From: Hydrolagus affinis | Taxonomy: Eukaryota | Direction: 5' to 3' | Assembly (NCBI GenBank): GCA_012026655.1 | Contig: JAAILG010000007.1 | Location: 124,001 to 188,000 of the forward strand | DNA: 64,000 nt | Shown: positions 2,900-62,971 of the stretch, piece by piece | How the letters are laid out: the number at the start of each line of letters is the position of its first letter | Numbering within the stretch: position 1 is the first letter of the stretch | The notes under the pieces: model-generated | The model's database searches: none | What the model saw: only the letters and a program-made list of their open reading frames with translations | Told to the model about the DNA's origin: nothing | Translations under genes and position numbers: made by a program

Positions 2900-3178
2900 A
2901 ACCCGCACAAATCCTAGAGAAAACAGAACCACTAAGTGTTACTTCAGGAACCACAGCAATTTTGGAATGTGTTGTAGCTGGCACACCCGAACTCAAAGTA
3001 AAATGGTTCAAGAATGGAGAGGAGGTGACATCCAGCAGGAAATATAAAATGAGCTTTGTGAATAAGGTGGCCAGCCTGAAGGTTCTGTCTGTTGATAAGG
3101 ATGACAGTGGAGAGTATACTTTCGAGGTCAAGAATGAGTTTGGACAAGAGAGCTATAAGACGTCTTTGACGGTGCTAG
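2900..3178 (+). CDS. ttn: Titin Ig exon class E (279 nt)
   Basis: cag|EPAQILEKTE...DSGEYTFEV...LTVL|gttgg. Confidence 0.95.
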
Positions 3179-3566
3179 GTTGGTGAATTTGTGCATTGAA
3201 AGCTTTGCTCATACAAAACATGCATTTCAAAAGAAATCATTTCCAGTCTAATTTAATAAATGAAGGCTTGTAAATGCTCTAATGCTCTGGCATCATATCT
3301 GAATATTGGTGTTATCATATTACCTTTTGTAGTAGAAAATATCAATATTCAGATTGAGTCTGGGGTATTCGATTGGCTTGTAGGCATTGAGGATATCATC
3401 TACAACCATAATTATATCCTTAGTTCTTCATGTCCACATTCACCACGCTCATGCTTTGAATAGCTTAAGGGACATTACAAGTACTTTAAGAACAACATTG
3501 CAAACCATTGCAAAAATCTGCTGCTTTCAGCTGACAACCTTTGTTTTATTGCTCTGTGTTGGACAG

Positions 3567-3854
3567 ATCGAATGATTGCTCCATCATTTACAAGAAAGTT
3601 AAAGAAAATGGATGACATATTAGGGGCTTTGATGCACATGGAATGCAAAGTGTCTGGTTCTCATCCAATCAGCATTTCTTGGTGCAAAGATAACAAAGAG
3701 ATAATGGCAAATGACAAATACGCAATATCATTTGAAGACAACACATCAGTGTTGGAGATCGCTCAACTTGAAATCGCGGATGATGGAAATTACTATTGCA
3801 AAGCAACAAATGATGCTGGAAGTTGTGAATGCAGTGGATCCTTATCCGTTAAAG
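3567..3854 (+). CDS. ttn: Titin Ig exon class F (288 nt, 3-residue linker)
   Basis: cag|DRMIAPSFTRKL...LSVK|gtttg. Confidence 0.95.
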
Positions 3855-5330: not shown

Positions 5331-5484
5331 ATAATGATAATAATAATAATAATCCTTGCATTTGATGTAGCGCATTATCACATCATCAAGACATCCCAAA
5401 GCGCTCAGAGAGTATATTGTAAAGCGGATTGTCGGTGTATTTTGTGGCCGAAACGTGGCCGCCAATTGCGCACAGCAGAATGTC
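5331..5484 (-). mobile_element. tRNA-SINE 3' half (Deu-like core and (ATT)n tail)
   Basis: Reverse complement of the 3' part of the full SINE copies at 29.9, 31.7 and 35.4 kb. Confidence 0.8.
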
Positions 5485-6047: not shown

Positions 6048-6326
6048 AGCCAGCAAAAATAACAGAGCAAGCACATTCGCTTAGCGTGACTGTGGGCGAT
6101 CCAGCCAACCTGGAATGTACTGTCAGTGGTACACCAGAGTTAAACGTAAAATGCCTTAAGGATGGGAAGGAGCTGGTGTCTAGCAGGAAGTGCACCATCA
6201 GCTTTCAGAATAACGTGATCAGCCTAAAGTTTCTATCCGTTTGTAAGGAGGATAGTGGTGATTATACATTTGATGTCAAGAATCAATTTGCGTCCTGCAG
6301 ATGCAAAGCTTCATTGACAGTCCTAG
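6048..6326 (+). CDS. ttn: Titin Ig exon class E (279 nt; core Trp replaced by Cys)
   Basis: cag|EPAKITEQAH...NVKCLKDG...LTVL|gttgg. Confidence 0.92.
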
Positions 6327-6532
6327 GTTGGTGATTTCTTTGTGTGGAACGATTACATGAGTAAAACATGCATTGACAGGCCTAGAGTTGGTAGGAATTA
6401 TCTTTGACAGTGCAGTAATTTGCAAATGGAAAAAAAATAATCCTGGTGACAACTACTATATGAGCCCATTGATGATATAATGCAAAATGTTTAGGTTATC
6501 ACAGAAGATCGATCATTCTTAACGCTGATAGT

Positions 6533-6650
6533 CATTGCATTTGATATAGCCCCTTATTACGTCATTCAGCTTCACAGAGTATATTGTAAAGTGGATTGGC
6601 TGCATATCTTGTGGGCGAAAGGTGACAGCCAATTCTGCGGCGTCCACAAA
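6533..6650 (-). mobile_element. tRNA-SINE 3' fragment
   Basis: 'ttgcatttgatatagc...cttcacagagtatattgtaaagtg...cagccaatt' is the reverse of the SINE 3' end. Confidence 0.7.
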
Positions 6651-7294: not shown

Positions 7295-7656
7295 GTTTGA
7301 GAGATTAACTTATTATATTTCAGTGCGTTCCATAGCTTTGGCAAATCTACCCATTATCTTCACGAATTAAGCTCATTCTCATCACAGATTTGTTCCCATT
7401 TTCATTCTGGCTTTTTAGTTTTCCTCACGTTGATTTAATATAATGATAATAATCATCTTTGCATTTGATATGGCGCCTTATCATGTCATTGAGACGACTC
7501 TTTTGTTGAATTTGCAATTTGTTATGTCTTTTGCAGTAAATTGCAATTCTAGCTTTGCAATTGATTTTTAACAGATATCTTACAACAACAAAAAAGTTCG
7601 GAACAAGAGGAATCTAATTCTATTGAACATTTTTTTTCCCCAAAATACATTTTTAG

Positions 7657-9684: not shown

Positions 9685-9870
9685 GTCAGTAGGAATTAAT
9701 CAGCATAATACAATTGAAATTGTGTCGTTTTTGTTTTACAATTGATTGAGGATCTCTGTCTCAGAATAGTTGCCGTTTCCACGTGGAATTTATTCTGTGA
9801 AAGTCTCAATCACAGACCAACGTTGCTGCACAGTTGTTCTGACGTGAATGGTGTGATTTCTTTCCCTTAG

Positions 9871-10149
9871 AACCTGCAAAAATCATAGAGAAAACTGAGC
9901 CACTCACTGTGACTATGGGAGATCCGGCCATACTGGAATGCACCGTGGCTGGTACCCCAGAACTCAAAGTTACCTGGTTCAAAAATGAGAAAAAGCTGGC
10001 ATCAAATTCAAAATATAAAACAAGTTTTGCGAATAAAGTGGCCAGGCTAAAGATCTTATCTGTTAAAATGGATGATACTGGGGACTATACATTTGAGGTC
10101 CAGAATGAATTTGGAACAAGTGGCTGCAGTGTCCCTTTGACCGTATTAG
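9871..10149 (+). CDS. ttn: Titin Ig exon class E (279 nt)
   Basis: tag|EPAKIIEKTE...LTVL|gtttg. Confidence 0.95.
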
Positions 10150-10290
10150 GTTTGTGATTCAATTGCATTTTAAAAGGGTTTAATTGTTATATATTTTTTA
10201 AAACACACAGATGTTTCTGAATTCGGCATAAAGTTCACAATGCTTCCCTTTTTGATATTTTACGCTTTTTTTTGTGTATTTCTTGGACAG

Positions 10291-10578
10291 ATCAAATAAT
10301 TCCTCCACTGTTTACAAGGAAATTGAAAGAAATGGACAGTGTTTTAGGATCTTTCATGCACATGGATTGCAAAGTGTCTGGTTCTATTCCCATGACTATT
10401 TCTTGGTACAAAGATAACAGAGAAATAACAGATAGTAACAAATACAAGATGTCATATCAAGACAACGAACTGACTTTAGACGTCGTTGAGTTAGATTTTT
10501 CAGATGGTGGGATTTATGTCTGCAGAGCAACAAATTCAGCAGGAAGGGATGAATGCAGTGGTACCTTAACCGTAAAAG
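10291..10578 (+). CDS. ttn: Titin Ig exon class F (288 nt)
   Basis: cag|DQIIPPLFTR...LTVK|gtttg. Confidence 0.95.
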
Positions 10579-10844
10579 GTTTGAAAGCCTACATTTTAAT
10601 ACATTTAGTTAGCCTTAAAGCAAGTCGCAAATACACATCTTTTTTTCTAACAATTTTCTGCAGTTACTTGGTGTGTATAAGCACAGTAAATTAATATGTT
10701 ACATTACGTTATCTTTATTTTGTTATCAATTTATGTATCAAACAGGACATAATTCAGAACCATGCATTCTTTTACTTGTAATCTCTTAGTGTTTGGAATT
10801 TGGAGCTAATCTCATTGAATAACTTCTTTTCACATCAATTTTAG

Positions 10845-11123: not shown

Positions 11124-11769
11124 GTCTGCATTTCTGGATTTCTTTACCTCAATCGCGATCTAGCATTGTTAGCTAGCCTTTTCAGCCTTCGAAGATTGGA
11201 TAGGGTTAACATATTTTATCTTTGGGGCGAGTGCAGACCAGTGGTGGAAGGTTAGACTCCTACAAGGGATACAGGGGAGGTGGAGATGAGGGACTATCAT
11301 GCATTCAAATCAGAGTTTGCAGTAACATTCAAAATTGTAATTCTTTGTTCTTCGCTAATCTTTGTTAAGTTGCTTACTTGGCAGCAGAACATCAGACATC
11401 ATTTAACAACAACAACAGCAGCAAAATTACATTCATATAGCACCTTTCACGTCGGGAGGACGTTTAAGAACTGCCTTAGAAGTTGGCCTTTGTTAACTGA
11501 ATACAGAGTAATATTAATTGGTGTTGCTTTGGGAGGGCGGAATCTATAGCCCAAGACAAAGAAATATGATGGAATACAGTAAGATGGAGGAAGATACTTA
11601 AAACCAATTAACAAAAAGAAGTAATTTAACTTTGCTTTTCTGTAGAGCAGAAGAGTTTTTTTTAAATTATAGTTACTTATAAATATCTTTTTTAATTCAT
11701 CGCTATTACTTAAGTCTAGTCGCCTACAGATAACCGTTATATTTAAGATGATTATATTTTGGTTTCTAG

Positions 11770-12051
11770 AACCTCCGAGCTTCATTAAAAAGCTAGATTC
11801 TTCGACAGTGCTGAGGAATGGAGACTCTGCACGCTTTGAATGCATTGTTACCGGCACACCTGAAATCAAAATTACTTGGTACAAAAATGACCATAAAATC
11901 AATGCCGATGACAAATACTTGATGTCGTTTGATGATTCTATGGCAGTTCTTGAGATACTTGGTGTTGATCTGAGTGACAGTACACATTATGCCTGTGAAG
12001 CACAGAATGAAGCTGGTAGTGACAGCTGCAGCACCGAAGTGAAAGTTAAAG
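11770..12051 (+). CDS. ttn: Titin Ig exon class B (282 nt)
   Basis: tag|EPPSFIKKLDS...VKVK|gtctg. Confidence 0.95.
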
Positions 12052-12195
12052 GTCTGTAAAAGTATCATCATCGCAATTTGCTCAGAAACAACCTGTGCAT
12101 AGACAAAGTATTTATTCCCTGATAGTACCAATGAGGTACTATTGTTCTCCGCACTTTGGTTGATATGTATTTCTTTCGTTGTGATTACTTCATAG

Positions 12196-12474
12196 AACCT
12201 CCCACTTTTAGAAGGAAACTTGAGCATACTGAGGTAGTAAAAGCCTGTGAAGTCACTCTCGAATGCGAGGTGACTGGTACAGGTCCCTTTGACGTTACGT
12301 GGTATAAGGAAAACAAACAGATTTCGTCTAGCGAAAAGTACAAGATGATCACACAAAACGCTGTAGTTAGCCTTCTCATTTTGAAGGTGGATGTCTCAGA
12401 TGCCGGTGACTACAAGTGCACGGTTGCAAATGATGTGGGAAGTTGTACCTGTAATTGCGGTCTCAAATTGAAAG
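12196..12474 (+). CDS. ttn: Titin Ig exon class C (279 nt)
   Basis: tag|EPPTFRRKLE...LKLK|gtcag. Confidence 0.95.
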
Positions 12475-12628
12475 GTCAGTTGAAATCCAATAGGATGTTG
12501 TTCTGCGATACCGCAGAATATAGTTTAAATCTCACTCTTAACAGGATCTAGAATCATTTGATTATCATTTGGGAGAAGAAGGGAGCAGAGAGCTTAATTG
12601 TATTTTATGACTCTTTATCTTAAACCAG

Positions 12629-12907
12629 ACCCACCATCGTTTGTAAAGAAGATTGAAAATGTTACAACTTTTGCTGGAAATTCCGCAGTGTTTCAATGCC
12701 TGGTAAAAGGCTCACAACCTTTATCCATAAATTGGATGAAAGATCAGGACGATGTCAAGGAAGATAATAATGTCATAATTTCTTTTGAGAATAATGTGGC
12801 CGCTCTGCAAATTATATCTGTTGAAGCAAAACACGGTGCAAGATACGTCTGTCAGGCCAAAAATGATGCAGGGATTGAGAAATGTTTTGCTACATTGAGA
12901 GTAACAG
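12629..12907 (+). CDS. ttn: Titin Ig exon class D (279 nt)
   Basis: cag|DPPSFVKKIE...LRVT|gttgg. Confidence 0.95.
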
Positions 12908-13044
12908 GTTGGTAGCTGGCACTCAGCTTTATAATTGGACAATGCATGCAAACCAATCATTGGCAAGTTCAAAATTGTTGTACCTCATCTTACTTTGTTT
13001 CATATCATACTTTGTTTCATATCATGCTTTGTGAATTATAGCAG

Positions 13045-13545: not shown

Positions 13546-13647
13546 GCATAAATTTAACATTGCCTCTTCTTTGCTTTTGCATTCAAGAGAAAGCTGCATT
13601 CAAATGTCAAGTATGTGAACATTACAGTGCAATTTCTTTTCAAACAG

Positions 13648-13926
13648 AACCCGCAAACATTATAGAAAAAGCAGATTCATGCAATGTAACTATTGGAAAT
13701 CCGGCAATTTTGCAATGTACTGTGACTGGCACACCAGACTTAAGAGTAAAATGGTTTAAGGATGGAAAGGAACTGACATCCGACAGACATTATACATTGA
13801 GCTTTGAGAAAATGGTGGCCAGTCTAAGGATTATGTCTGTAGAGAAGACGGATAGTGATGAATATACTTTCGAAGTCCAAAATGACTTTGGAGTCAGCAG
13901 TTGCAAAGCTTCATTGACAGCAATAG
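13648..13926 (+). CDS. ttn: Titin Ig exon class E (279 nt)
   Basis: cag|EPANIIEKAD...LTAI|gttgg. Confidence 0.95.
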
Positions 13927-14060
13927 GTTGGTGTTTTTTCCATATATTGGAACATTGGAAAGTTTAGATATAAAAGAAATATAATTGAGACATATTCTTC
14001 AGTGTGTGTTAAAAAAAAGTTGAATTTTGAAGCTGATTGGTTGTGCTTTATGTTGTGCAG

Positions 14061-14348
14061 ATCGAATAATTCCACCAACATTTATGAAAAAATTGAAGGA
14101 TATGAGCAATGTATTAGGGTCTTCCGTTTCTATGGAGTGCAAAATCGCTGGCTCTCTTCCAATGAGCATTTATTGGTATAAGGATGATGCAGAGATATCA
14201 GATAGCACTAAATATAAAATCTCAGTGCAAGATAACATTTCAACTTTGGAGATTAATCAACTTGATATCGCAGGTGGTGGAGTTTATTCTTGCAAAGTAT
14301 CAAATGTGGCAGGAAGCGCTGAATGCAGTGGTGCATTAACAGTCAAAG
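14061..14348 (+). CDS. ttn: Titin Ig exon class F (288 nt)
   Basis: cag|DRIIPPTFMK...LTVK|gttgg. Confidence 0.95.
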
Positions 14349-14596
14349 GTTGGAAATAGTACCTTATTATCTTCCGCTCAATTTTTCTAATGCTTTTAAC
14401 ATAAAAAATGTCAACAATTTATTTTAAATACCCGCTGCTTTAAATACCGGTATCGTTCGAAAGTTTTAAATAATCATTCTATGAATTGCGTTATCGGAAA
14501 TTTATGCCGCTCATAGCATAAGCTTTCTGCAATCCATGGATCTTCGTATGCGCTTCTTCTTTCAATGTGCACAATTTCTCTTCAATGAATTTTTAG

Positions 14597-16483: not shown

Positions 16484-16762
16484 AGCCAGCCACCATTGTG
16501 GAGAAGGCAGAGTCTGTCAGTGTGACTGCCGGAGATACAACAGTTCTGGAATGTGTTGTGGCTGGGACACCAGAACTAAAAGTTAAATGGTTCAAAGATG
16601 GTAAAGAACTGGTGTCCGGCAGAAAATATAAGATCAGTTTTCAGAACAAGATCGCCAGCTTAAAGCTTCTTTGTGGAGAGAGGGAAGATTCAGGACAATA
16701 TACGTTTGAAGTCCAGAATGATGTTGGTACAGATAGCTGCAAAGCAACAATCAATGTTCTAG
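16484..16762 (+). CDS. ttn: Titin Ig exon class E (279 nt)
   Basis: cag|EPATIVEKAE...INVL|gttgg. Confidence 0.95.
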
Positions 16763-16887
16763 GTTGGGTTCATTGTCATTTATTCTTTATCCTGTTTTTC
16801 TTAAAGATGTTCTTAAATTCTTTATTTTATCTTTTGAAAAGAAAAACTTTTGTAAATCATTGGGCTGTTGGTGTGTCTCACAAACAG

Positions 16888-17175
16888 ATCGCATTATTCC
16901 GCCATCATTCATCAGAAAATTAAAGAAAGCCGATGGTATCCTGGCCTCTCCCATCCTAATGGAGTGTAAATTGTCCGGATCAGCGCCCTTCACCATCTCC
17001 TGGTTCAAAGATGGACAGGAGATTGCACATGAAGCAAAATACGACATCTCATTTGCAGATAACACATGTAATTTAAGAATCAGCACACTGGAAACTTTGG
17101 ATGCTGGCAATTATACCTGCAAAGCAACAAACGCTGCAGGAAGTGATGAATGCAGTGGTATCTTGACGGTGAAAG
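16888..17175 (+). CDS. ttn: Titin Ig exon class F (288 nt)
   Basis: cag|DRIIPPSFIR...LTVK|gtcag. Confidence 0.95.
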
Positions 17176-18490: not shown

Positions 18491-18659
18491 GTTTGTTAAA
18501 TCTATATTTTTTGTACTTGCCAACTTGCAACTGCATTCTGCTATTTAGCTGATCTAATTTATCTAATCGAAGTGCTACTGTAAGCACTTTAAAATACCTT
18601 GAACATGTGATAAGGTGCTTTATCAAATGTAAAAATTATTATAATTATTGTTATTACAG

Positions 18660-19026: not shown

Positions 19027-19412
19027 TGTCAGCTTGGCTCAGTGGTAGCACTCTCACCTCTGAGGCAGAAGGTTGTGGGGTCACAAAGGAAATCATTGTC
19101 TAAGATGTCACTCCAATGTGGCGCTGTTGCATTGCCAGATCTGCCGTCCTTCGGATGAGATGTTAAACATAGGTCCCTGTTCAGGTGGATGTTAACAATC
19201 CCACGGTACTATTAAAAAAAAAAGAAGGGCATTCTTCTGGTGTCTTGACCTACAGTCCCCCAAATAAAATTGGTCATGTTTCATGGCTGTTTGTGGGACA
19301 TTGCTGTGTACACAATTGCCTGCAAATTCACAGTCACTCCATTACACAGTAAATTCTCTGAAGTTCTTTGAGATGTCGTGATAAGGCGCTGTACCAAAAT
19401 GCAATTATTTAT
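19027..19412 (+). mobile_element. Near full-length DeuSINE (SacSINE1/AmnSINE1-like; tRNA head, Deu domain, L2-like tail)
   Basis: Head 'ggctcagtggtagcactctcacctctgaggcagaaggttgtgg', core 'gccgtccttcggatgagatgttaaac...caggtggatgttaacaatccc...gctgtttgtgggacattgctgtg', tail 'gataaggcgctgtacc..aatgcaattattatt'. Confidence 0.8.
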
Positions 19413-19762: not shown

Positions 19763-19934
19763 GTTTGTTGGGTTAAAACATTACCAATCACCTGCAGATT
19801 TTAGTCTCTATTCTTATCTTTTACCTTTGTCTGGAGTTATTCTATCATGCACCTGTCTTTGCAGTAAGTCAGTCCCATAGAACTGAAGTATTCAATGATT
19901 AGAAATTAATTGTTTTACATGTTGTGACTTTTAG

Positions 19935-20222
19935 AGGCCAGAGTCGCTCCTGAGTTTGACAAAACACTAGAAGCAATGGAAGTCATAGCTGGGGACCCAG
20001 TGGAGCTTGAATGCCATGTAATTGGCTCTACTCCTATCAAAGTGTCCTGGCTGAAGGATAACCGAGAGATCCGATCTGGTGGTATCTATAAGATGACCTT
20101 CGAGAACAATACATCTCACTTGACGATTCTAAAAGCAGAGAAGGGAGATTCTTGCCAGTACACTTGTCAGGCCAGTAATGACGTCGGCAAAACCTCTTGC
20201 TCAGCAGTGGTGACTGCAAAAG
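19935..20222 (+). CDS. ttn: Titin Ig exon class J (288 nt; I77-like)
   Basis: tag|EARVAPEFDK...REIRSGG...VTAK|gtatt. Confidence 0.95.
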
Positions 20223-20364
20223 GTATTGTTCGATAACTCCCATTTATGTCTGTCTTTCTCCAAATGTCTGTCATTAACTAATGAGGTAAAGGTTAAAGAG
20301 TTGCTGTTTAGCCATATGAAAAATCTGTCGGGTGAAACTGCTGGATTAGTCCTTCAACAAGTCT

Positions 20365-20625
20365 GTTGCACTAGTGTGTTCAACAGGACAGTGTTGGGAA
20401 TGTTTAGGATTTTGTTTTATACATTTATCGTTTGAAATGTACCAAAGGCGATACGCCAGAAGTAAAAATGAAATGGTTCAAGGAGAAAAAATGTAATAAC
20501 CTTGAGAATAATGTGCATAAAGTGGCCAGTGTAAATGTTCTATCTAAGGAGAAGGTGGGTAGCGAGTCAGAGGTAAATGTGCCCTTGAGATGTAGAATGA
20601 GAGCAGAAGACTCTTTGACACTATT
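20365..20625 (+). pseudogene. Decayed titin Ig pseudo-exon, class E
   Basis: Translates LKC..GDTPEVKMKWFK...KVASVNVLS; nucleotide matches to exon 2900-3178; internal deletions and donor lost. Confidence 0.8.
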
Positions 20626-20740
20626 TTTGTGATGTCCATATACATCAGATATTCTAAAACAATACATTATTAGTAAGATTTGATGTGAAGTTACAAATAA
20701 TTTCCTGTTTCTGGCTGATAGACTGCACTGTGTTGCACAT

Positions 20741-20999
20741 TTTAAATCATTGCTACATCATTTGCAAAAAAAAAGAATAGACAAGGGGCTTAAGTGTATA
20801 TGAAAGTAAAGAGATTGGTTCTGTTCGTAATACACTGATGAACAAGGGGAGAAATATTAGATAGTTACAGATATCACATGCTGCATTTTCAAGGTAATAC
20901 ATCAGTTGTCGTGATGTCAATCACTAGAAGTCATAGAGCAGGGCATTTATTCTTGAGAAGTGACAAATTGAGGAGAAAATGAAGCATTTACCAAACAAG
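20741..20999 (+). pseudogene. Decayed titin Ig pseudo-exon, class F
   Basis: 'gcactgtgttgcacat|tttaaatcattgctacatcatttgcaa' aligns without gaps to 'gctctgtgttggacag|atcgaatgattgctccatcatttacaa' (exon 3567); acceptor AG>AT, indels and stops. Confidence 0.8.
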
Positions 21000-21514
21000 A
21001 CTTGAAAGATTTCCTTGTCATCTAGATAAATTTCTAAGGGCCTCTGAGGCTAATGAATCAACAAATACAGATACAGATAAATCTTTCTAGGTAGTTTCAC
21101 TTGTTTTTCGTTTGCGTTCTCGGTGAATATCTGTACTCCTCAAGTGGAGATGTTATTGAATGGAACGTTGATTTGATTTTTGTCACACAATTAGTCTGAA
21201 AAAATGCTCCAAACTTGAACACCTTCTACTTTAACCGGGCAACATTTCAATTGATACCCTGACCAACCTTAACAATTTTCTCGGGAAACTGAGAAATTGA
21301 GCCTCTACCAAAAGGGATGAGACTTGCCAAACCCAATTTATGATGAATTCCTTCCTTCAGCATGTAGTCAATCGTACATAGGTTGGATTCATAACCAGAG
21401 GAGAGCAGAGCGTGTGTGAGCACTGTGCCACTAGGGATGTTTCTAAGTTTTTACTCTTCAGAGGATTTCTTTCTTGGAAGAAAAATTCATGTTTGCTGGG
21501 TCTATCTGTTACAG

Positions 21515-21802
21515 AACGTAAAATCCCACCAAGCTTCACGAAAAAGCCCCTTGAAAGTATACAGGATACAGAAGGCAAGGCAGTAAAACTGGAAGCTCGT
21601 ATTTCTGGTTCTCAACCTCTGTCTGTAACATGGTTCAAAGATGAACAGGAGATCTATCAAACTGAACATGAAATATCATTTAAGAATAATGTGGTGCTGT
21701 TGAACATGAAGAAAGCACTTCCCATTGATTCTGCTGTTTATACATGCAAGGCTTCTAATGAAGTGGGATTTGCATCATTTACCGTGTCTGTGCTCATCAA
21801 AG
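21515..21802 (+). CDS. ttn: Titin Ig exon, I78-like (288 nt)
   Basis: cag|ERKIPPSFTKKP..DTEG.AVKLE...VLIK|gttag. Confidence 0.95.
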
Positions 21803-23536: not shown

Positions 23537-23608
23537 GTAAGCACACCTCCAAGTATTTTCTTTATTGTTTATTGAGTTAAAGAGACTCGTGTGTGGAAAA
23601 AAAATACA

Positions 23609-23760
23609 AATAATAATAATAATCCTTGCATTTGATATAGCGCTTTTCATGTCTTCTAGACATCTCAAAGCACTTCACAGAATATACTGTAAAGTGAATT
23701 GATTGTATATTTTGTAAGCGAAATCTGGCAGCCAATTGCGCACAGCAGTGTCCTCACAAA
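23609..23760 (-). mobile_element. tRNA-SINE 3' half
   Basis: (TAA)n + 'ccttgcatttgatatagcgcttttc...gcagccaattgcgcacagcagtgtcc'. Confidence 0.82.
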
Positions 23761-42396: not shown

Positions 42397-42984
42397 GTCA
42401 TAATTAGCAGATGCAACATGTAGGCAAAATGGACAAATATGTGTATTTAGGGCAGTGCATCCTCTGTCAATTAATGGGATGTTAATCTCTGCACATAAGA
42501 TGGGGTTGCCCAACAGTCAGTACATTTACTGTGAAAACCTACTGACTAGTTGTTGCAACTAAGAAGAGAATAATCCTACAATAAACTCCCATTGTAAACA
42601 TGGAACATCCAATCACTGACCCTATATAACTTAGTTCAGTATAAAGCTGCTTAAAAAATCCAAACAAGTGTTATCAGTAATTCAAATTGACTTGAATCAA
42701 AAATGTGATAATTATTTGTGAAGGAAATAGAAATTAAAGTACATTGAAAATATTTCCTGGTCAAATTGACATTTTACCATTGAATATAACTTATTTCCAA
42801 CTATTGGCAAAGCATCCAGTTTTCTGCTTTCATTTCATGTTTAGAAATATTCATTGTCTTTGTTCAGTCATGTCTTGTGTGTGTCATCATTGTTACTTTG
42901 AGTTCTGACTGGTAATTTATAAATTCTCAAAGTTATATATTTTCTCGAGTCAACATTTTCTTACGATAATAATATTCTTTGAAG

Positions 42985-43068
42985 TGCAAGAAGTTCCTAA
43001 GAGGCGAGTAATTGAAGAAGTGAAACCTGCAATTGTTCCAAGAAGGAAGGAGATTCCTCCAGCTGAAG
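42985..43068 (+). CDS. ttn: Titin PEVK exon (84 nt)
   Basis: VQEVPKRRVIEEVKPAIVPRRKEIPPAE. Confidence 0.87.
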
Positions 43069-43609
43069 GTACAGCATGAGAGAGAGATTTTTTGGCACCT
43101 TCATTCATACTAAGTTTGGCTGTCTGTTTGCACAATTTGACTGAAATTTGTGTCTACATTTTTCAGCCATTTCTCAATCATTGTCCAGATTCCAATTCTG
43201 GTTCATCTTGTTGAGGTGGAATTAATCATCACCATATTCAGTCATCCATGTTCTATTCTGTTACAGTGTTGTGATACCTGCGTGTTTGTGTTTTACGTCT
43301 GTGTGTATCTTTCATACTGTCATATGTAGCAACTACAACACACAGGGGCAATGTTTAGTATATTTCAGTTAACTACTGAAATAGTAGTGGTGCAACACAT
43401 TTCTTGGTCAATTTATTGAGGATGATTTTCCGAACCCCTTTAAATTGGTGACTTTATCGCCAATGGGGTTGGTCACTTAACTTTTCTTCAACAAGGAAAT
43501 TTATACATTGATGTGGTGTCAGCTGGGAGCAGGATTGGACCCGTAACATTCATAAATCTCATTTGATTGTAGTTGGCTCACTGCAATTATTCTTTTAATG
43601 TAATATTAA

Positions 43610-43865
43610 ACAAACAACAAATTACATTTATAAAGTGCCTTTCAATTCGGATGGACACCCCAAGGCCCTGGACAGTTAAGCGATTGCATTCCAGCTGGGG
43701 GATGGAGTCAACAGGAGTGCAGGGCAAGGGGATTGGGTGGGTGGCCAAAGGCACAGTCAAAGAGTCGGGTCTTGAAGGAGGCAAACACGGGGCTGAGGTA
43801 GAGGGATTTGGGGATAGAATTCCAAAACCTAGGGTCAGAAACTCTGAGGGCCCGACCGCCAGTGG
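43610..43865 (-). mobile_element. L2-type 3' fragment, co-duplicated at ~45135-45395, ~46650-46920, ~48175-48450 and partly ~49675-49770
   Basis: 'acaacaaattacatttataaagtgcctttca...gagtcgggtcttgaaggaggc...gagggatttggggat..aattcca' is the reverse of the L2 3' end seen at 63400-63646. Confidence 0.75.
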
Positions 43866-44127
43866 TATAAATTAGAGTAATTTGCAGTCACATTTCTAAC
43901 TTATCAACGCAAAAAGTCCCTGTTAATTTCAGCACCTGTCCAGGGTAGCAACATTTTATGTTGACAAGTGATTTTACTTTTGAATACACTCATGCATTTC
44001 ATGTACCATCAATATGTCGTCTTGAGTACGTTTCCCTGTGATGTTTCTTGTTATCTTGGTTTACGTGACTTCAATGTTATGTGTATTCTTATGTGAATCT
44101 TTTCTTAAACAACGCTATTCTTTAAAG

Positions 44128-44211
44128 TGCCGGAGGTCCCTAAGAAGCCGATGGCTGAAGAAGTCAAACCTGTTACTGTTCTTAGAAGGAAGGTGTCTCC
44201 TCCAATTGAAG
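44128..44211 (+). CDS. ttn: Titin PEVK exon (84 nt)
   Basis: VPEVPKKPMAEEVKPVTVLRRKVSPPIE. Confidence 0.88.
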
Positions 44212-44441
44212 GTACAAACACAATGGGAGACTTTATATATCATATTTTCAGTGTGGCTGCACGTACACACGATTAGATAGAAAACCGTGTCTGTTTCATC
44301 GTCTTCTCACAAACTCTGCCCAGCCTCAGTTTTTGGTTCTTCGTCTGGCGTCAGTTGGTCTTGTCTGTGACGTTAGTGTGTTCAATGTTCTGTGTATTTT
44401 CTTGTATAAATTATTTCCTAAAATGCTAATATTCTTAAAAG

Positions 44442-44525
44442 TGCCAGAGGTCCCTAAGAAGACAATAGTTGAAGAAATGAAACCTGTTACTGTTCCAAGA
44501 AGGAAGGAGATTCCTCCGACTGAAG
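44442..44525 (+). CDS. ttn: Titin PEVK exon (84 nt)
   Basis: VPEVPKKTIVEEMKPVTVPRRKEIPPTE. Confidence 0.88.
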
Positions 44526-45655
44526 GTATAGCACTAGAGAGAGAGATTTTATGACATCTTCATTCATACTCAGTTTGGCTGTCTGTTCCATCACTTGACT
44601 GAAATTTGTGTCTGCATTTTTCAGCCATTTCTCAATCACAGTCCAGATATTGATTCTGGTTCTTCTTGTTGTAGTGGAATTAATCATCACCATATTCAGT
44701 CATCCATGTTCTATTCTGTTACATTGTTGTGATACCTGTGTGTTTGTGTTTTACATCTGTGAATAACTTTCATGCTGTCATATGCAGTAACTGCAACACA
44801 CGAGAAACATTTAGTATATTTCAGTTAAGTCCTGTCACATTGGTGCAACACATTTCTTGGCCAATTTATTGTGAGTGATTTTCTGAACCCCTTTAAATTG
44901 GTGATGTTATCACCAGTGGGGTTGGTTACCTTACTCCATATGAACCAGAAAATTTACAGATTGATATAGTTTCAGCTTGGAGCAGGATTGGACCCTTGAC
45001 CTTCACAAATCTCAGTGTGGGACATCCTCCTGAAGTGAAAGGCGCTATTATACTAAGCATAATTTTGTTATTGTTAGTGACTTTGCCAGTGGTTGCAGTT
45101 GGCTCACTGCATTATTCTTTTAATATAATATTAAACAAACAATAAATTACGTTTCTAAAGTCTCTTTCAATTCAGATGGATGCCCCAAGGCGGTGGACAG
45201 TCAAGGGTTTGCATCCCAGCTAGGGGATGGAGTCGCCAGGGATGGAGAGCAAGGGCATTGGGTGGGTGGCCAAAGGCATAGTGAAAGAGAAATGTCTTGA
45301 GTCGGGGCTTGAAGGAGGCAAATGAGGTCGCGAGATGGAGCGATTTGGGGATGGAATTGCAAGTGTAGAGGCAGAAACGATGAAGGCCCAACTACTGTAA
45401 AGTAGAGTAATTTGTAGTCACATTTCTAACTTATCTAGGCAAAAAGTTCCTATTAATTCCACAACCTGTCCAGGATAATGACATTTTATGTTGACAAGTG
45501 ATTTTACTTTTGAATCACTCATGCATTTCATGTACCATCAATATGTCATCTTGAGTACGTTTCCCTGTGATGTTTCTTGTTATCTTGGTTTACGTGCCTT
45601 CAATGTTATGTGTTTCTTATGCAAATCTTTTCTTAAACCACACTATTCTTTAAAG

Positions 45656-45739
45656 TGCCGGAGGTTCCTAAGAAGCTGATGGCTGAAGAAGTCAAACCTG
45701 TTCCTGAACTTAGAAGGAAGGTGTCTCCTCCAACTGCAG
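45656..45739 (+). CDS. ttn: Titin PEVK exon (84 nt)
   Basis: VPEVPKKLMAEEVKPVPELRRKVSPPTA. Confidence 0.88.
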
Positions 45740-45967
45740 GTACAAGAACATTGAGAGACTTTATAACATTTTCAGTGTGGTTGCACATACGCATCATTAG
45801 ATTGAAAATTGTGTTTATGTTTCACTGTTGTCTCACAAACTGTGTCCAGATTCACTTTCTGGTTGTGCGTCTAGCGTCAGTTGGTCTTCTCTGTGACGTT
45901 AGTGTGTTCAACGTTCTTTGTATTTTCTTGAGTGAATCATTTCCTAAAATGCTAATATTCTTAAAAG

Positions 45968-46051
45968 TGCCAGAGGTCCCTAAGAAGACAATAGTTGAAG
46001 AAATGAAACCTGTTACTGTTCCAAGAAGGAAGGAGATTCCTCCGACTGAAG
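45968..46051 (+). CDS. ttn: Titin PEVK exon (84 nt)
   Basis: VPEVPKKTIVEEMKPVTVPRRKEIPPTE. Confidence 0.88.
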
Positions 46052-47172
46052 GTATAGCACTAGAGAGAGATTTTATGACATCTTCATTCATACTCAGTTT
46101 GGCTGTCTGTTTCCATCCTTTGAACGAAATTTGTGTTTACATTTTTCAGCCATTTCTCAATCACTGTCCAGATATTGATTCTGGTTCTTCTTGTTGTGGT
46201 GGAATTAATCATCACCATATTCAGTCATCCATGTTCTATTCTGTTACAGTGTTGTGATACCTGTGTGTTTGTGTTTTACATCTGTGAATGTCCTTCACAA
46301 CGACAGCAAAACAAAACTACATTTATAGAGCACCTTTCTCATCCAAGGCGATGGCATATCTAGTAACTGCAACATACAGTGGAAATGTTTAGTATATTTC
46401 AGTTAACTACTGTCACATTGGTGCAACACATTTCTTGGTCAATTTATTGTGAGTGATTTTCTTAACCCCTTTAAATTGGTGACGTTATCACCAATAGTTT
46501 TAGCTTAGAGCAGGATTGGACCCTTAACATTCACAAATCTCAGTCGGGGATGTCCTCCTATACAAGCATAATTTTGTTTTTGTTATTGTTAGTGATTTTG
46601 CCAGTGATTGCAGATGGCTCACTCCACTATTCTTTTAATATAATATTAAACAAACAATAAATTACGTTTATAAAGTCCCTTTCCATTCAGGTGGATGCCC
46701 CAAAGCACTAGACAGTCAAGGGTTTGCATCCCAGCTGGGGGATATAATCAACAGTGGGTGGAGGGCAAGTGCATTGGGTGGGTGGCCCAAGGCACAGTGA
46801 AAGAGAAAGGCCTTGAGTCGGGTCTTGAAGGAGGCAAATGAGCTCGCAAGATGGAGGGATTTGGGGATGGAATTCCAAGGGTAGAGGCAGAAACGCTGAT
46901 GGTCGGACTGCCAGTTGTGTAGAGTAATTCGTAGTCACATTTCTAACTTATCAAGGCAAAAAATCCCTGTTAATTCCAGAACTTGTCCAGGGTAACAACA
47001 CTTTATTTTCATAGTAGATTTTACTTTTGATGCACTCATGCATTTCATGTACCATCAGTATGTCGTCTTGAGTATGTTTCCCTGTGATGTTTCTTGTTAT
47101 CTTGATTTACGTGACTTCAATGTTATATGTTTCTTATGCAAATCGTTTCTTAAACAACGCTATTCTTTAAAG

Positions 47173-47256
47173 TGCCGGAGGTTCCTAAGAAGCTGATGGC
47201 TGAAGAAGTCAAACCTGTTCCTGAACTTAGAAGGAAGGTGTCTCCTCCAACTAAAG
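47173..47256 (+). CDS. ttn: Titin PEVK exon (84 nt)
   Basis: VPEVPKKLMAEEVKPVPELRRKVSPPTK. Confidence 0.88.
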
Positions 47257-47484
47257 GTACAAGAACATTGAGAGACTTTATAACATTTTTAGTGTGGCTG
47301 CACATACGCATCATTAGATTGAAAACTGTGTTTATGTTTCATTGTTGTCTCAAAAACTCTGCCCAGACTCAGCTTCTGGTTGTGCGGCTGGTGTCAGTTG
47401 GTCTTGTCTGTGACGTTAGTGTTTTGAATGTTCTTTGTATTTTCTTGAATGAATCATTTCCTAAAATGCTAATATTCTTAAAAG

Positions 47485-47568
47485 TGCCGGAGGTTCCTAA
47501 GAAGACAATAGTTGAAGAAATGAAACCTGTTACTGTTCCAAGAAGGAAGGAATCTCCTCCAACTGAAG
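47485..47568 (+). CDS. ttn: Titin PEVK exon (84 nt)
   Basis: VPEVPKKTIVEEMKPVTVPRRKESPPTE. Confidence 0.88.
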
Positions 47569-48705
47569 GTATAGCACCAGCGGAAGATTTTATGGCATCT
47601 TCGTTCATACTCGGTTTGGCTGTCTGTTTCCATCCTTTGAATGAAATTTGTGTTTACATTTTTTAGCCATTTCTCAATCACTGTCCAGATATTGATTCTG
47701 GTTCTTCTTGTTGTGGTGGAATTAATCATCACCATATTCAGTCACCCATGTTCTATTCTGTTACAGTTCTGTGATACCTGTGTGTTTGTGTTTTACATCT
47801 GTGAATGTCCTTCACAACGACAACAAAACAAAACTACATTTATCGAGTACCTTTCTCATCCAAGGCGATGGCGTATCTAGTAATCGCAACATACAGTGGA
47901 AATGTTTAGTATATTTCAGTTAATTCCTGTCACATTAGTGCAACACATTTCTTAGTCAATTTATTGTGAGTGATTTTCTTAACCATTTTAAATTGGTGAC
48001 GTTATCACCAATAGTTTTAGCTTAGAGCAGGATTGGACCCTTGACCTTCACAAATCTCGATGTGGGATGTCCTCCTGACGTGAAAGGCGCTATAGTAAAC
48101 ATAATTTTGTTATTGTTAGTGACTTTGACAGTGATTGCAGTTGGCTCACTGCATTATTCTTTTAATATAATATTAAACAAACAATAAATTACGTTTATAA
48201 AGTCCCTTTCCATTCAGGTGGATGCCCCAAAGCATTAGACAGTCAAGGGTTTGCATCCCAGCTGGGGGATATAATCAACAGGGGGTGGAGGGCAAGTGCG
48301 TTGGGTGGGTGGCCAAACGCATAGTGAAAGAGAAAGGTCTTGAGTCGGGTCTTGAAGGAGGCAAACACGGGGCTGAGGTAGAGGGATTTGGGGATGGAAT
48401 TCCAAGGGTAGAGGCAGAAACGCTGATGGCTGGACTGCCAGTTGTGTAAAGTAGAGTAATTTGTAGTCACATTTCTAACTTATCAAGGCAAAAAGTCCCT
48501 GTTAATTCCAGGACTTGTCCAGGGTAACAACACTTTATTTTGACAAGTGATTTTACCTTTGATGCACTCATGCATTTCATGTACCATCAATATGTCGTCT
48601 TGAGTACGTTTCCCTGTGATGTTTCTTGTTATCTTGGTTTACGTGACTTCAATGTTATGTGTATTCTTATGCGAATCTTTTCTTAAACAACGCTATTCTT
48701 TAAAG

Positions 48706-48789
48706 TGCCGGAGGTTCCTAAGAAGCCGATGGCTGAAGAAGTCAAACCTGTTACTGTTCTTAGAAGGAAGGTGTCTCCTCCAATTGAAG
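48706..48789 (+). CDS. ttn: Titin PEVK exon (84 nt)
   Basis: VPEVPKKPMAEEVKPVTVLRRKVSPPIE. Confidence 0.88.
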
Positions 48790-49019
48790 GTACAAAAACA
48801 ATGGGAGACTTTATATATAACATTTTCAGTGTGGCTGCACGTACACATCATTAGATAGAAAACCGTGTCTGTTTCATTGTCACCTCACAAACTCTGTCCA
48901 GCTTCAGCTTTTGGTTCTTCGTCTGGCATTAGTTGGTCTTGTCTGTGACGTTAGTGTGTTCAATGTTCTGTGTATTTTCTTGAATAAATCATTTCCTAAA
49001 ATGCTAATATTCTTAAAAG

Positions 49020-49103
49020 TGCCAGAAGTCCCTAAGAAGACAATAGTTGAAGAAATGAAACCTGTTACTGTTCCAAGAAGGAAGGAGATTCCTCCGATTG
49101 AAG
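49020..49103 (+). CDS. ttn: Titin PEVK exon (84 nt)
   Basis: VPEVPKKTIVEEMKPVTVPRRKEIPPIE. Confidence 0.88.
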
Positions 49104-49970
49104 GTACAGCACGAGAGAGAGATTTTATGACATCTTCATTCATACTCAGTTTGGCTGTCTGTTCCATCATTTGAATGAAAATTGTGTCTGCATTTTTCAG
49201 CCATTTCTCACTCACTGTCCAGATATTGATTCTGGTTCTTCGTGTTGAGGTGGAATTAATCATCACCATATTCAGTCATCCATGTTCTTTTCTGTTACAG
49301 TGTTGTGATACCTATGGTGTTTGTGTTTTACATCTGTGTCTTTCATGCTGTCATGTGCAGTAACTGCAACATATAGGGGTGAAGTTTAGTATATTTCAGT
49401 TAACTACTGTGACATTGATGCAACACATTTCTTGGTCAATTTACTGAGGGTGATTTTCTGAACCCCTTTAAATTGGTGACTTTATCACCAATGGGGTTGG
49501 TTACTTTACTCTATTTCAACCAGGAAATTGACAGATTGATATGGTGTCAGGTTAGAGCAGGATTGGACCCTTAACATTCATAAATCTCAATTGGTGACTG
49601 CCAGTAATTGCAGTTGGCTCACTGCATTATTTGTTTAATGTAATATTAAATATTAAATAATGTAATATTAAATATTGAGTCAGGTCTCAAAGGAGGCAAG
49701 GGAGGGAGCAATGCGGAGGGATTCCGAGATGGAATTCCAAAAGCATAGCAGCAGAAACACTGAAGGACCATATAAAGTAGAGTAATTTATAGTCACATTT
49801 CTACGTTATCAAGGCCAAAAGTCCCTGTTACTTCCAGAGCCTGTCCAGGGTAACAGCACTTTATGTTGATAAGTTTTCCTGTGATGTTTCTTGTTATCTT
49901 GGTTTACGTGACTTCAATGTTATGTGTATTCTTATGTGAATCTTTTCTGAAACAACGCTATTCTTTAAAG

Positions 49971-50054
49971 TGCCGGAGGTTCCTAAGAAGCCGATGGCTG
50001 AAGAAGTCAAACCTGTTACTGTTCTTAGAAGGAAGGTGTCTCCTCCAACTGAAG
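49971..50054 (+). CDS. ttn: Titin PEVK exon (84 nt)
   Basis: VPEVPKKPMAEEVKPVTVLRRKVSPPTE. Confidence 0.88.
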
Positions 50055-50280
50055 GTACAAAAACAATGGGAGACTTTATAATATTTTCAGTGTGGCTGCA
50101 CGTACACATCATTAGTTGGAAAACCATGTCTGTTTCATTGTCGTCTCACAAATTCTGCCCAGACTCAGCTTCTGGTTCTTCGTCTGGCGTCAGTTGGTCT
50201 TGTCTGTGACGTTAGTGTGTTCAATGTTCTTTGTATTTTCTTGAATGAATCATTTCCTAAAATGCTAATATTCTTAAAAG

Positions 50281-50364
50281 TTCTGGAGGCTCCTACGAAG
50301 ACAGTAGTTGAAGAAGTGAAACCTATTACTGTTCGAAGAAGGAAGGAATCTCCTCCGACTGAAG
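50281..50364 (+). CDS. ttn: Titin PEVK exon (84 nt)
   Basis: VLEAPTKTVVEEVKPITVRRRKESPPTE. Confidence 0.86.
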
Positions 50365-51164
50365 GTACAAAACAAGTGGGAGATTTTATAAAATCTTTGT
50401 TTGTGCTCTGGTCTGTTCCCACCATAAGAATGAAAACTGTGTCTACATTTCATGGTTGTCTCTCAAAGCTCGGTCCAGTCTTAGTTACTGGTTCTTCTTG
50501 TTGTGTTGGAATTAATCAACACTATATTAAGTCATCGATGTTTGTTTTGTTCATGATACCCATGTGTTTGTGTGTTTTACGTCTGTGTATATCTTTCGTG
50601 TTTATCACATGCAGTAATTGCAACATGCAGAGAAAAGGTTTAGCATATTTCAGTTAACATACTTTCAATTCCATGGAACAAGTTGTTGGTCCATTTTATT
50701 GAACCCCATTAAATTGGTGGCTTTGTCATCAATGGGGTTACCTTACTCTTCTCCAACCAGGAAATTTATAGACTGATATGATGTCACCTTCGAGTAAGAT
50801 TGGACCATTAAAAATAAATCTTAGTTGAAGACTGTCAAATGACTGGTAGAATCAACATATTATTCATAATGTAATATTAAAATGCTTTTTAAAACAAAAT
50901 ATGCTTTATTCATATCATGGGATGAATTATAAATTATAGTCAAATTTCTAATGTATTAGTGCAAATAGCTTTTGTAAAAATTGCTGAGACTGAGCAAAGT
51001 AACAATACAAGTGATTTTGTTTTGAGTTAATATTTTTGATTCACCAATTTATATTGACTTGAGTTCGTTCTCCTGTGATGTTTCTTGTTTTCCTGGTTTA
51101 CTTGCCTTCGATGTTATATATATTCTTGGCTGAATCTTTTCTTAAACAATAATATTCTTTAAAG

Positions 51165-54367: not shown

Positions 54368-54689
54368 GTACAAAACTAGACAGAGATCTTATAAAACCTG
54401 AATCCTTCTTCAGTGTGCCAGTCTGTTTCCAACATTACAATGGAAAGTTGATCCCCGTTTATCTTGCTCCTCTCTCAAACTCTGCCCAGAATCTACTTCT
54501 GGTGAAATTAATCATCACGCTATTTATTCACAGTAATGTTGGAGTTTCAAGTTTTACATCTTTGTGTGTTTTTTTTCCCATGTTGTTTTAAATAGTGGCT
54601 GTCTTGTATGTGGAACTGTTTGATTTGTTCAGTATTAGCATTATTTGGTGGAGCAGAACTTATATTATTTTCAGAGCCAGTCCAGATCC

Positions 54690-55245
54690 CTGTTGTCTTT
54701 TTGACCCTCAACTGTCCTTTCTGCCCCACCACCATGAACCTTTCTGCCTCCCCCACCTCCACCACTGCCTCTCTCCTCGGGGCCCCCGAGTCCCTCCATT
54801 ACATCTAGGCTCAACTTTGCTAACTACCTGCTTATTGGCATTCCCAGCTCTTTCTTCTGCATGCTGCAGATCATCCAGAACACTGCAGCTCGGGTCCTCT
54901 CCCACACCAGGCTCCCAAGACCCTATCACCCCCAAGCTCGCCCAGCTCCAATGGCTCCCCATCTCCCAGAGGATAGAGATAAAAATCCTTGTCCTCACCT
55001 TCAAAGCCTTCCAAGGGCTTGCTCCTCCCTACTTTTGTGACTTTTTAACTCCATATCAATCTGTCTGCTCCCTCAGCTCAGCAAGCTCCAATCTGCTCCA
55101 CATCCACCACCCAGCCCTCCCCACCATTGACAGTTGGGCCTTCAGCCTCTTTCACCCCATCCTTTGGAACTCCATCCCAATTTCCTTATTGTCCAGTACC
55201 TTGGGACATCCTCCCGACATTAAAGGTGCTATACAAATGTAGCAA
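54690..55245 (+). mobile_element. L2-type LINE ORF2 3' fragment, frameshifted
   Basis: PITPKLAQLQWLPISQRIEIKILVLTFKAFQGLAPPY is the typical L2 ORF2 C-terminus; tail 'aaaggtgctatacaaatgt'. Confidence 0.85.
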
Positions 55246-56550: not shown

Positions 56551-56762
56551 TTTTTTTCTTTTGAACATCACGACACATTATTTTTTAAATAAACTTTTAC
56601 TTTGATGTATTATTCATAGTTTTGGTTCAATGCAGTGTGTTGTCTTCAGTCAGTGTTTGCTCTGTCATGTGTGTCATTTTACTGTGGGATGTTATTTGTA
56701 CGTCTCCTGTTATACATGTTTTCTTGAGTGAATCTATGCTTACACGATAATATTCTTTAAAG

Positions 56763-56846
56763 TGCCGGAGGTTCCTAAGAAACCAGTGGCTGAAGAAGTC
56801 AAACCTGTCACTGTTCCAAGAAGAAAAGAGATTTCTCCTGCTGAAG
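56763..56846 (+). CDS. ttn: Titin PEVK exon (84 nt)
   Basis: VPEVPKKPVAEEVKPVTVPRRKEISPAE. Confidence 0.88.
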
Positions 56847-57098
56847 GTACACAACTAAGAGAGAGATTTCATAAAATCTTCATTCTTAATCAGTGTGACT
56901 ACAAGTTCCCATCATTAAAATAAAAACGTGTCTATACTTCTCTTAAACTTCTGTCCAGACCCCGCTTATGGTTCTTCTTCTGATCTTGTTTGCTGCTGGT
57001 TTTGTCTGTGAAGTTTAAATGTTACTACTTTATGTGTTGAGCTTTCCATATATTTTTTGGAGTGAATCGTTCCCTAAACCGTTAATATTCTTTTAAAG

Positions 57099-57182
57099 TG
57101 CCGGAGGTTCCCAAGAAACCAATGGCTGAAGAAGTCAAACCTGTCACTGTTCCAAGAAGAAAAGAGATTTCTCCTGCTGAAG
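57099..57182 (+). CDS. ttn: Titin PEVK exon (84 nt)
   Basis: VPEVPKKPMAEEVKPVTVPRRKEISPAE. Confidence 0.88.
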
Positions 57183-57434
57183 GTATACAACTAAGAGAGA
57201 GATTTCATAAAATCTTCATCCTTAATCAGTGTGACTACAAGTTCCCATCATTAAAATAAAAACGGTGTCTATACTTCTCTTAAACCTCTGTCCAGACCCC
57301 GCTTATGGTTCTTCTTCTGATCTTGTTTGCTGCTGGTTTTGTCTGTGAAGTTTAAATGTTACTACTTTATGTGTTGAGCTTTCCATATATTTTTTGGAGT
57401 GAATCGTTCCCTAAACCATTAATATTCTTTAAAG

Positions 57435-57517
57435 TGCTGGAGGTTCCTAAGAAACCAATGGCTGAAGAAGTCAAACCTGTTACTGTTCCAAAAAGAAAGG
57501 CGTCTCCGCCAACTGCG
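57435..57517 (+). pseudogene. ttn: PEVK exon copy with 1-nt deletion (83 nt, frame-shifting)
   Basis: VLEVPKKPMAEEVKPVTVPKRKASPPTA ends ACTGCG|gtacaa instead of ACTGCAG|gtacaa. Confidence 0.7.
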
Positions 57518-62802: not shown

Positions 62803-62971
62803 GTACAACTACACACTCGGATTGATCTAAATCTCGTATTGTGCCATCTTTGCCAAGTTTCTACACTCATAGTCTTTACATCAATCATAGCCAGAAATGA
62901 TCTTCTGGTGCTTCTTTCATTCTTGCCATTCATATCACTATCTTTCCCTGTGTTTGTTTGTTGTCATGTGC

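Follow-up and report, generated by a model that had tools for sequence, protein, structure and literature searches.

What does the intron between the equivalents of the titin domains I77 and I78 contain in a chimaera, which part of the gene did its contents come from, and do they still play a role? The locus lies in the window analysed here, a stretch of 64,000 nucleotides of Hydrolagus affinis DNA, whose content, according to an exon scan, is the I-band part of the titin gene on the + strand. Intact Ig exons were defined by a scan for phase-1 AG/GT exons, which recovered 36 of them between 1224 and 22551: four 6-Ig repeats (B-C-D-E-F-A) are followed by one 10-Ig repeat, ending with exon 19935-20222, and by two closing Ig exons (21515, 22264), downstream of which lie the N2A and PEVK exons. 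The exons of the window are 85-96% identical to titin fragments of Callorhinchus milii and 55-83% identical to ray/shark fragments. Numbered via the C. milii protein P0059, the 6-Ig repeats of the window are repeats 3-6; repeats 1 and 2 lie upstream of it and were compared as Callorhinchus protein only. According to the main text of PMC12241362, elephant shark titin has six 6-Ig repeats and one 10-Ig repeat and whale shark titin eight and one, the repeats being followed directly, in both, by two domains matching human I78-I79; the four layouts published there have nothing between I77 and I78.

Two decayed Ig exons in the I77-I78 intron

The intron between the two equivalents is made up as follows:

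19935..20222, + strand: intact Ig exon, last of the 10-Ig super-repeat and I77 equivalent, whose donor starts the relic-bearing intron (exon scan; RNA depth 10-14)
20223..21514, + strand: 1292-nt GT-AG intron with the relics, removed whole (13 junction reads; zero RNA depth within)
20223..20430, + strand: intron stretch upstream of relic E, without a significant class D remnant (profile and shuffle searches)
20431..20625, + strand: relic class E Ig exon, with its first ~61 bases and acceptor unrecognisable, internal deletions, an 8-nt insertion and the donor lost (nhmmer E=6.2e-10; alignments)
20626..20740, + strand: former E-F intron of ~115 nt, whose acceptor at the 3' end is mutated (AG to AT at 20739-20740; alignments)
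20741..20999, + strand: relic class F Ig exon, interrupted by several frameshifts and stops; its donor GT is AC at 21000-21001 (nhmmer E=3e-11; alignments)
21515..21802, + strand: intact Ig exon, I78 equivalent (exon scan, RNA)

For detection, the window was searched with DNA profiles of classes A-F (nhmmer) while the 36 intact exons were masked. The class E profile matches 20431-20600 (33.0 bits, E=6.2e-10) and the class F profile 20726-20977 (37.5 bits, E=3e-11); these are the only significant matches in the middle-Ig introns of the masked window, two others at E<0.01 (25291, 25958) being real, unmasked exons of the N2A region. The top scores among 300 shuffles of the intron were 5.0 bits (E) and 4.3 bits (F), which rules out chance resemblance. 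No profile matches the reversed intron, and on the real intron classes A, C and D gave no match and class B 2.2 bits. In pairwise comparisons with 40 dinucleotide shuffles, all five E exons aligned better to the intron (z 5.5-14.6), as did four of the five F exons (z 8.6-26.6), the exception being F16888 (z 0.8). The intron between the I77 and I78 equivalents holds two decayed titin Ig exons in the native order, E then F. This was the claim of the initial annotation, which would have given it up if class E/F exons aligned no better than shuffled controls; both relics clearly exceed the shuffles.

The two are recognised as pseudo-exons by their homology to exons of the host gene on the same strand and by disabled splice sites and reading frames, all four sites being broken or lost. 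Only E and F are detectable of the whole six-exon unit B-C-D-E-F-A. In relic E, the first ~61 exon bases are missing and the acceptor is not recognisable, and the donor, described initially as a deleted AG|GT, has gone through a 3-nt deletion at the junction. The stretches TPEVKMKWFK and KVASVNVLS were found as described, and the relic is crossed by a 74-codon stop-free frame, its second codon positions being 82% identical to those of E2900. Relic F aligns without gaps across the acceptor of exon 3567, with the change of AG to AT that had been pointed out, and ends at 20999 as proposed; the gap between E and F, put at about 115 nt, is the spacer 20626-20740. Two details of the earlier description fared less well. 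Of the motifs said to be peculiar to exon 3567, NTSV is unique among the F domains listed, whereas IA and GA are also present upstream of the window, in Callorhinchus repeat 1, and, in Mobula, in the orthologue of 3567. A supposed class D 3' end at ~20263-20320 is attributable to chance (p = 0.10, 0.87, 0.78, 0.55 and 0.048 for five D exon ends, uncorrected); for D5602, the middle of the exon matches at p=0.003, uncorrected for the 36 exons compared.

The inner sequence of the spacer does not significantly match any single one of the intact E-F introns, and the ends of the relics show no informative repeats and no target-site duplication. The similarity between 20341-20419 and the intron 19831-19917 (one of 180 comparisons; p=0.0007, ~0.13 corrected) was dismissed as noise, the level of which is illustrated by the equally strong resemblance of the spacer to an unrelated A-B intron (p=0.0017). 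In three DNA runs, a single further contig each matches 20529-20547 and 21168-21185 exactly, over 19 and 18 nt and ~53 nt apart; these matches are probably due to chance.

Transcripts skip the relics. In one single-cell polyA library (run X13, organism B, tissue unknown), of which ~27% was read and 173 reads aligned, splicing of the three introns of the stretch is seen in 8, 13 and 6 reads, respectively; the second set, with 11 starts, joins 20220 to 21513, i.e. I77 to I78, and RNA depth is zero in 11 of 11 bins across 20256-21432. The check for splice-junction reads suggested at the outset has been carried out in this library, with none found on the relics. At the DNA level, the relics recur at ~1-2% difference in runs of three close relatives, organism A covering the whole stretch and B and C parts of it. 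At least three frameshifting indels lie within the 573-nt relic, at 20486 (B), 20766 (A and B) and 20830 (A), the first being a 1-nt deletion that breaks the stop-free frame through relic E, while the variants listed for A and B include no indels in intact exons. In run X7, a loose end at 21389 continues into exon F10291. A second insertion was considered and rejected in favour of a probable proximity-ligation junction, because GANTC is joined to GATC there; most other X7 contig ends are of the same kind, and one shows a doubled GATC.

Which repeat supplied the block

The intact E-F pairs of the window most relevant for the search for a donor are the following:

2900..3854, + strand: E-F pair of the third 6-Ig repeat, intact (E 2900-3178, F 3567-3854), with the highest identity, candidate donor (identity, trees)
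13648..14348, + strand: E-F pair of the sixth 6-Ig repeat, intact, with the top whole-block score (147), sister on the MAFFT alignment (local scores, trees)
16484..17175, + strand: intact E and F of the adjacent 10-Ig repeat, farthest from relic F, disfavoured as donor (identity, AU tests)

In the profile alignment both relics are nearest to 2900/3567, with identities of 66% for E and 64% for F compared with 58-63% and 53-60% for the others. The trees comprised only E-F pairs with both domains at full length, the relic being read through with gaps at its breaks; in the DNA tree, the relic goes with 2900/3567 (65% identity over 409 columns, support 76/76). At first and second codon positions, 182 of 263 sites match 2900/3567, compared with 162-171 for the other four copies. 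The relic has 11 of 31 private states in common with 2900/3567 and 25 of 216 with the other four (Fisher p=0.0015); 2900/3567 also has the shortest branch. No excess likeness to this pair is found at third codon positions (71, 66, 73, 71 and 63 of 131 for the five copies) or in the flanking introns, which single out no repeat as the donor. Third-position identity among the intact 6-Ig copies themselves is 65-80 of 131, like that of the relic. The top whole-block local score is obtained with 13648/14061 (147 vs 129, 112, 63 and 56), the donor context of relic E is most like that of E9871, and the DNA AU test rejects none of the five candidate donors.

In protein trees, the four 6-Ig E-F pairs of the window cluster with a pair from a devil ray (93/93); elasmobranch orthologues with starred support exist for repeats 3 and 5 (97/81, 100/99). 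As a side observation, two different fragments from Mobula hypostoma, P0277 and P0267, both group with the fifth repeat of the window (96/80 with each other), which suggests either that this repeat was duplicated once more in rays or that the two gene models represent related copies. The relic falls among the 6-Ig repeats of cartilaginous fishes in all four protein trees, never with a star (82/93, 79/93, 71/37, 54/23), the two lowest supports having been reached with more rows. Its sister is repeat 3 on one alignment and repeat 6 (13648/14061) on the other, and it lies outside the starred pair of 2900/3567 and the Mobula orthologue in both trees that contain this orthologue. Since the relic is a long branch, which a starred clade can wrongly exclude, its placement is tentative. 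Sisterhood with 16484/16888 has AU p of 0.02 and 0.03 on the profile alignment, and of 0.10 and 0.12 on the MAFFT alignment; for a position with the 10-Ig clade or the upstream repeats, p ranges from 0.07 to 0.39, apart from one value of 0.043 that did not recur. Judging from these comparisons, the relics tentatively resemble the 6-Ig repeats more than the adjacent 16484/16888, and a copy of the 10-Ig repeat is disfavoured. The initial annotation had set the adjacent pair aside, which is borne out on the profile alignment and less clearly on the MAFFT alignment. It had also taken 2900 and 3567 for the closest intact paralogues; this holds as to nearest identity, whereas the third positions, the shifting sister and the AU tests do not sustain it as to the donor.

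The layout in other vertebrates bears on the same question. An I78-type domain directly follows an I77-type domain in nine bony-vertebrate proteins (two bonefish, cichlid, arowana, sturgeon, halosaur, alligator, elephant and one more), and none of the proteins parsed (20 of 120 and 12 of 43 of those listed) has an E-F pair at this junction, where a few gene models leave domains out. A further scan comprised 147 proteins, of which nine were listed. For sharks and C. milii, the I77-I78 layout was taken from the main text of PMC12241362.

Two specific donors may be weighed against this background. A long-range copy of the 2900/3567 pair, made later in the chimaera lineage and dead on arrival, corresponds to the first option of the initial annotation; it would account for the highest identity of both relics, for the match at first and second codon positions, for the shared private states and the NTSV motif, and its AU p values are 0.22 and 0.26. 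Such a copy should, however, stand out at third positions as well: in simulations of dead-on-arrival 2900/3567 copies with ages of 0.2, 0.25, 0.3, 0.35 and 0.41, an excess as small as the observed one had P=0.000, 0.001, 0.026, 0.12 and 0.38, so that ages of 0.2-0.3 fit poorly (P 0.000-0.026) and only ages of at least 0.35, close to that of the expansion itself, are compatible with it (P 0.12-0.57). As the flanking introns do not favour the 2900/3567 repeat, the donor context best matches E9871, and IA and GA are common to other repeats, we consider a late copy unlikely. Less probable still is that E and F are the only survivors of a second 10-Ig super-repeat, which could have arisen by local tandem duplication like the mammalian triplication or have been inherited from the jawed-vertebrate ancestor. 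In tetrapods (alligator, elephant, turtle), another B-C-D-E-F run does come after an I77-type domain, and AU p for placing the relic with the 10-Ig clade is 0.07-0.26. Yet relic F is farthest from F16888 (53%; 48% leave-one-out; z 0.8), sisterhood with 16484/16888 fares as described above, no trace of B, C, D or A accompanies the relics, and E-F is absent at this site from the bony-vertebrate proteins examined.

Route, age and present role

The reading that we prefer, with a probability of roughly two in three, is that the two titin Ig pseudo-exons stem from a DNA-level duplication of an E-F block of 6-Ig type, the copy of which came to rest beyond the 10-Ig repeat, away from the tandem array. 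The duplication was presumably genomic rather than a retroposition, since the E-F intron and the splice-site contexts came along: the 115-nt spacer and these contexts are at their native places. The simplest route would be that unequal crossing-over duplicated a large stretch in tandem and that most of the copy was then deleted; ectopic insertion is an alternative route that would look the same. The block was probably born at about the time of the early 6-Ig expansion of cartilaginous fishes, as one more lineage among repeats 3-6. It was possibly coding for a time before its splice sites were lost. This loss would have cost nothing, because all exons are of phase 1 and I77 is in frame to I78; it would have restored the in-frame I77-I78 joint, after which the block decayed.

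As to the dates, the 6-Ig expansion is older than the chimaera-shark split, because repeats 3 and 5 have elasmobranch orthologues. Fourfold-site distances among the 6-Ig repeats are 0.72-0.94 in five of six pairs and 1.47 in one, and 1.09-1.22 relative to the 10-Ig repeat. The calibration spans 410-450 My, with the chimaera-shark date as its lower end. A repeat-split date of 450 My is given in the main text of PMC12241362. With the repeats split 410-450 My ago, the rate would be ~1e-9 per site per year, and the decay of the relic, 0.30 substitutions per site (bootstrap 0.20-0.41; 165 columns invariant in the five intact copies), would place its death ~200-400 My ago, as an order of magnitude only, given that constant rates are assumed and that saturation, rate change, gene conversion and column-picking alignments intervene. 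The third-position distances suggest that birth is older than death, and the block may therefore have coded for a time; the upper bound of the decay also allows for death at birth.

A bolder version is that in early cartilaginous fishes the 10-Ig repeat was followed by an additional block of 6-Ig type, long expressed, a layout found in no living species examined, and that its E-F core has stayed legible for at least 300 My, possibly because the intron was recruited to splicing control next to N2A. We regard this as rather unlikely. If true, the relics would be among the oldest readable pseudo-exons in a living gene, would be shared with sharks and rays, and would provide a marker for dating the lengthening of the titin spring.

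The relics presumably do nothing now, no function being indicated. If they were dead as coding sequence and kept recognisable by weak selection as a splicing or transcriptional element, for which regulatory exonic remnants, as described in the accessible part of PMC2831330, would be a precedent, they should diverge slowly. In organism A, 5 of 573 relic sites differ compared with 17 of 525 in the neighbouring introns (Fisher p=0.008), among the 40 of 78 variants listed. But the whole relic-bearing intron is equally slow on the same 40 of 78 variants (16/1292 or 1.2% vs 17/525 or 3.2%, p=0.006), and the remainder of that intron shows no difference from the relic (11/719, p=0.32; again 40 of 78 variants listed). 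Counts from contig pieces of organism B show no dip (6/449 in relic F, 8/334 after it, 6/496 in I78 and the next intron), and the three indels lie inside the relic. Rfam yields no family at its threshold in the relic region; a weak mir-15 match (RF00455) and a hairpin were rejected, the match reaching 21.7 bits against a gathering threshold of 57.3 and the spacer folding no better than its shuffles (z=-0.52). A slow lineage rate suffices to account for the survival of the relics; weak selection is quite improbable, and a regulatory role has low odds. Hardly credible at all is a rarely used alternative exon, to which the 74-codon frame of relic E and the 82% identity of its second positions to E2900 might point, given the zero RNA depth, the missing donor and the 1-nt deletion in organism B that breaks the frame; the same goes for chance resemblance, which the bits of the relics exclude against the best of the 300 shuffles. 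The duplicated E-F block of 6-Ig type, decayed behind the 10-Ig repeat, is the reading retained below.

Surroundings, precedents and meaning

Several other features of the window deserve mention in their own right. An interspersed repeat of up to ~140 nt, 73-84% identical and in both orientations, occurs in six introns of the Ig region:

5339-5478, 6528-6634, 7436-7495, 18578-18656, 19324-19377 and 23603-23748, both orientations: copies of the interspersed repeat

It is probably a SINE-like element and of interest since transposons have been proposed as drivers of block duplications. Further downstream, at 42938-50881, PEVK exons and introns form tandem blocks of ~1.5 kb that share 76-85% identity along stretches of up to 4.7 kb. 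This series of duplications is much younger than that of the Ig repeats; at 56716-57557 lies a shorter one with 92% identity. Open frames in PEVK introns at 54592-55239 and 62891-63576 are presumably decayed fragments of LINE reverse transcriptases. Among the intact repeats, 1217-2344 and 11763-12914, as well as 9869-10586 and 13646-14356, align across short introns at ~65% identity. In E6048 (6048-6326), a Cys replaces the conserved Trp of the Ig-fold core, and its branch is longer than those of the other 6-Ig E-F pairs; the domain is possibly relaxed or destabilised.

The relics resemble several described systems without being identical to any. The 6-Ig expansion of cartilaginous fishes (PMC12241362, main text) concerns the same gene region, with its 6-Ig repeats, one 10-Ig repeat and two closing Ig domains, and involves duplication of multi-exon blocks as well; it covers live exons only, whereas the relic is a dead two-exon fragment behind the 10-Ig repeat and outside the array, and the main text contains no wording for pseudo-, remnant, degenerate, lost or vestigial exons. 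In the mammalian 10-Ig triplication (main texts of PMC12241362 and PMC12198301), a B-C-D-E-F run directly behind an I77-type exon occupies the position of the relic; these copies are whole, live and of 10-Ig type, whereas the relic resembles E and F of 6-Ig type. Introns that carry copies of exons from the same gene are common and have been described as a class: the accessible part of PMC9013439 reports 4,027 intronic homologues of annotated same-gene exons in human genes, with obscurin as a case study. Those tandem-exon-duplication copies were found, as here, by similarity to annotated exons of the same gene, but they have at least 80% identity and some are expressed, while the relics have ~65%, no splice sites and a place apart from their closest paralogues. 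Exonic remnants that act as cis-regulatory elements (PMC2831330, accessible part) are likewise old exon sequence outliving its coding function; they followed whole-genome duplication and are under constraint, as opposed to a duplication within one gene. The literature searched, which consisted mostly of papers free of subscription, at the level of listings and abstracts, and which included the main texts of PMC12241362 and PMC12198301, makes no mention of titin Ig pseudo-exons.

The relics are real, apparently unreported and ordinary in kind; they are notable for their age and for their place outside the array. They leave the titin protein unchanged. They show how long dead exons stay readable in slowly evolving chimaera genomes, and they offer a presence/absence marker for assemblies of sharks, rays and chimaeras. 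They also extend what has been published on the history of the middle-Ig segment by one step: the titin spring lengthened by trial and loss as well as by tandem gain, with at least one block that came to lie outside the array and died there.
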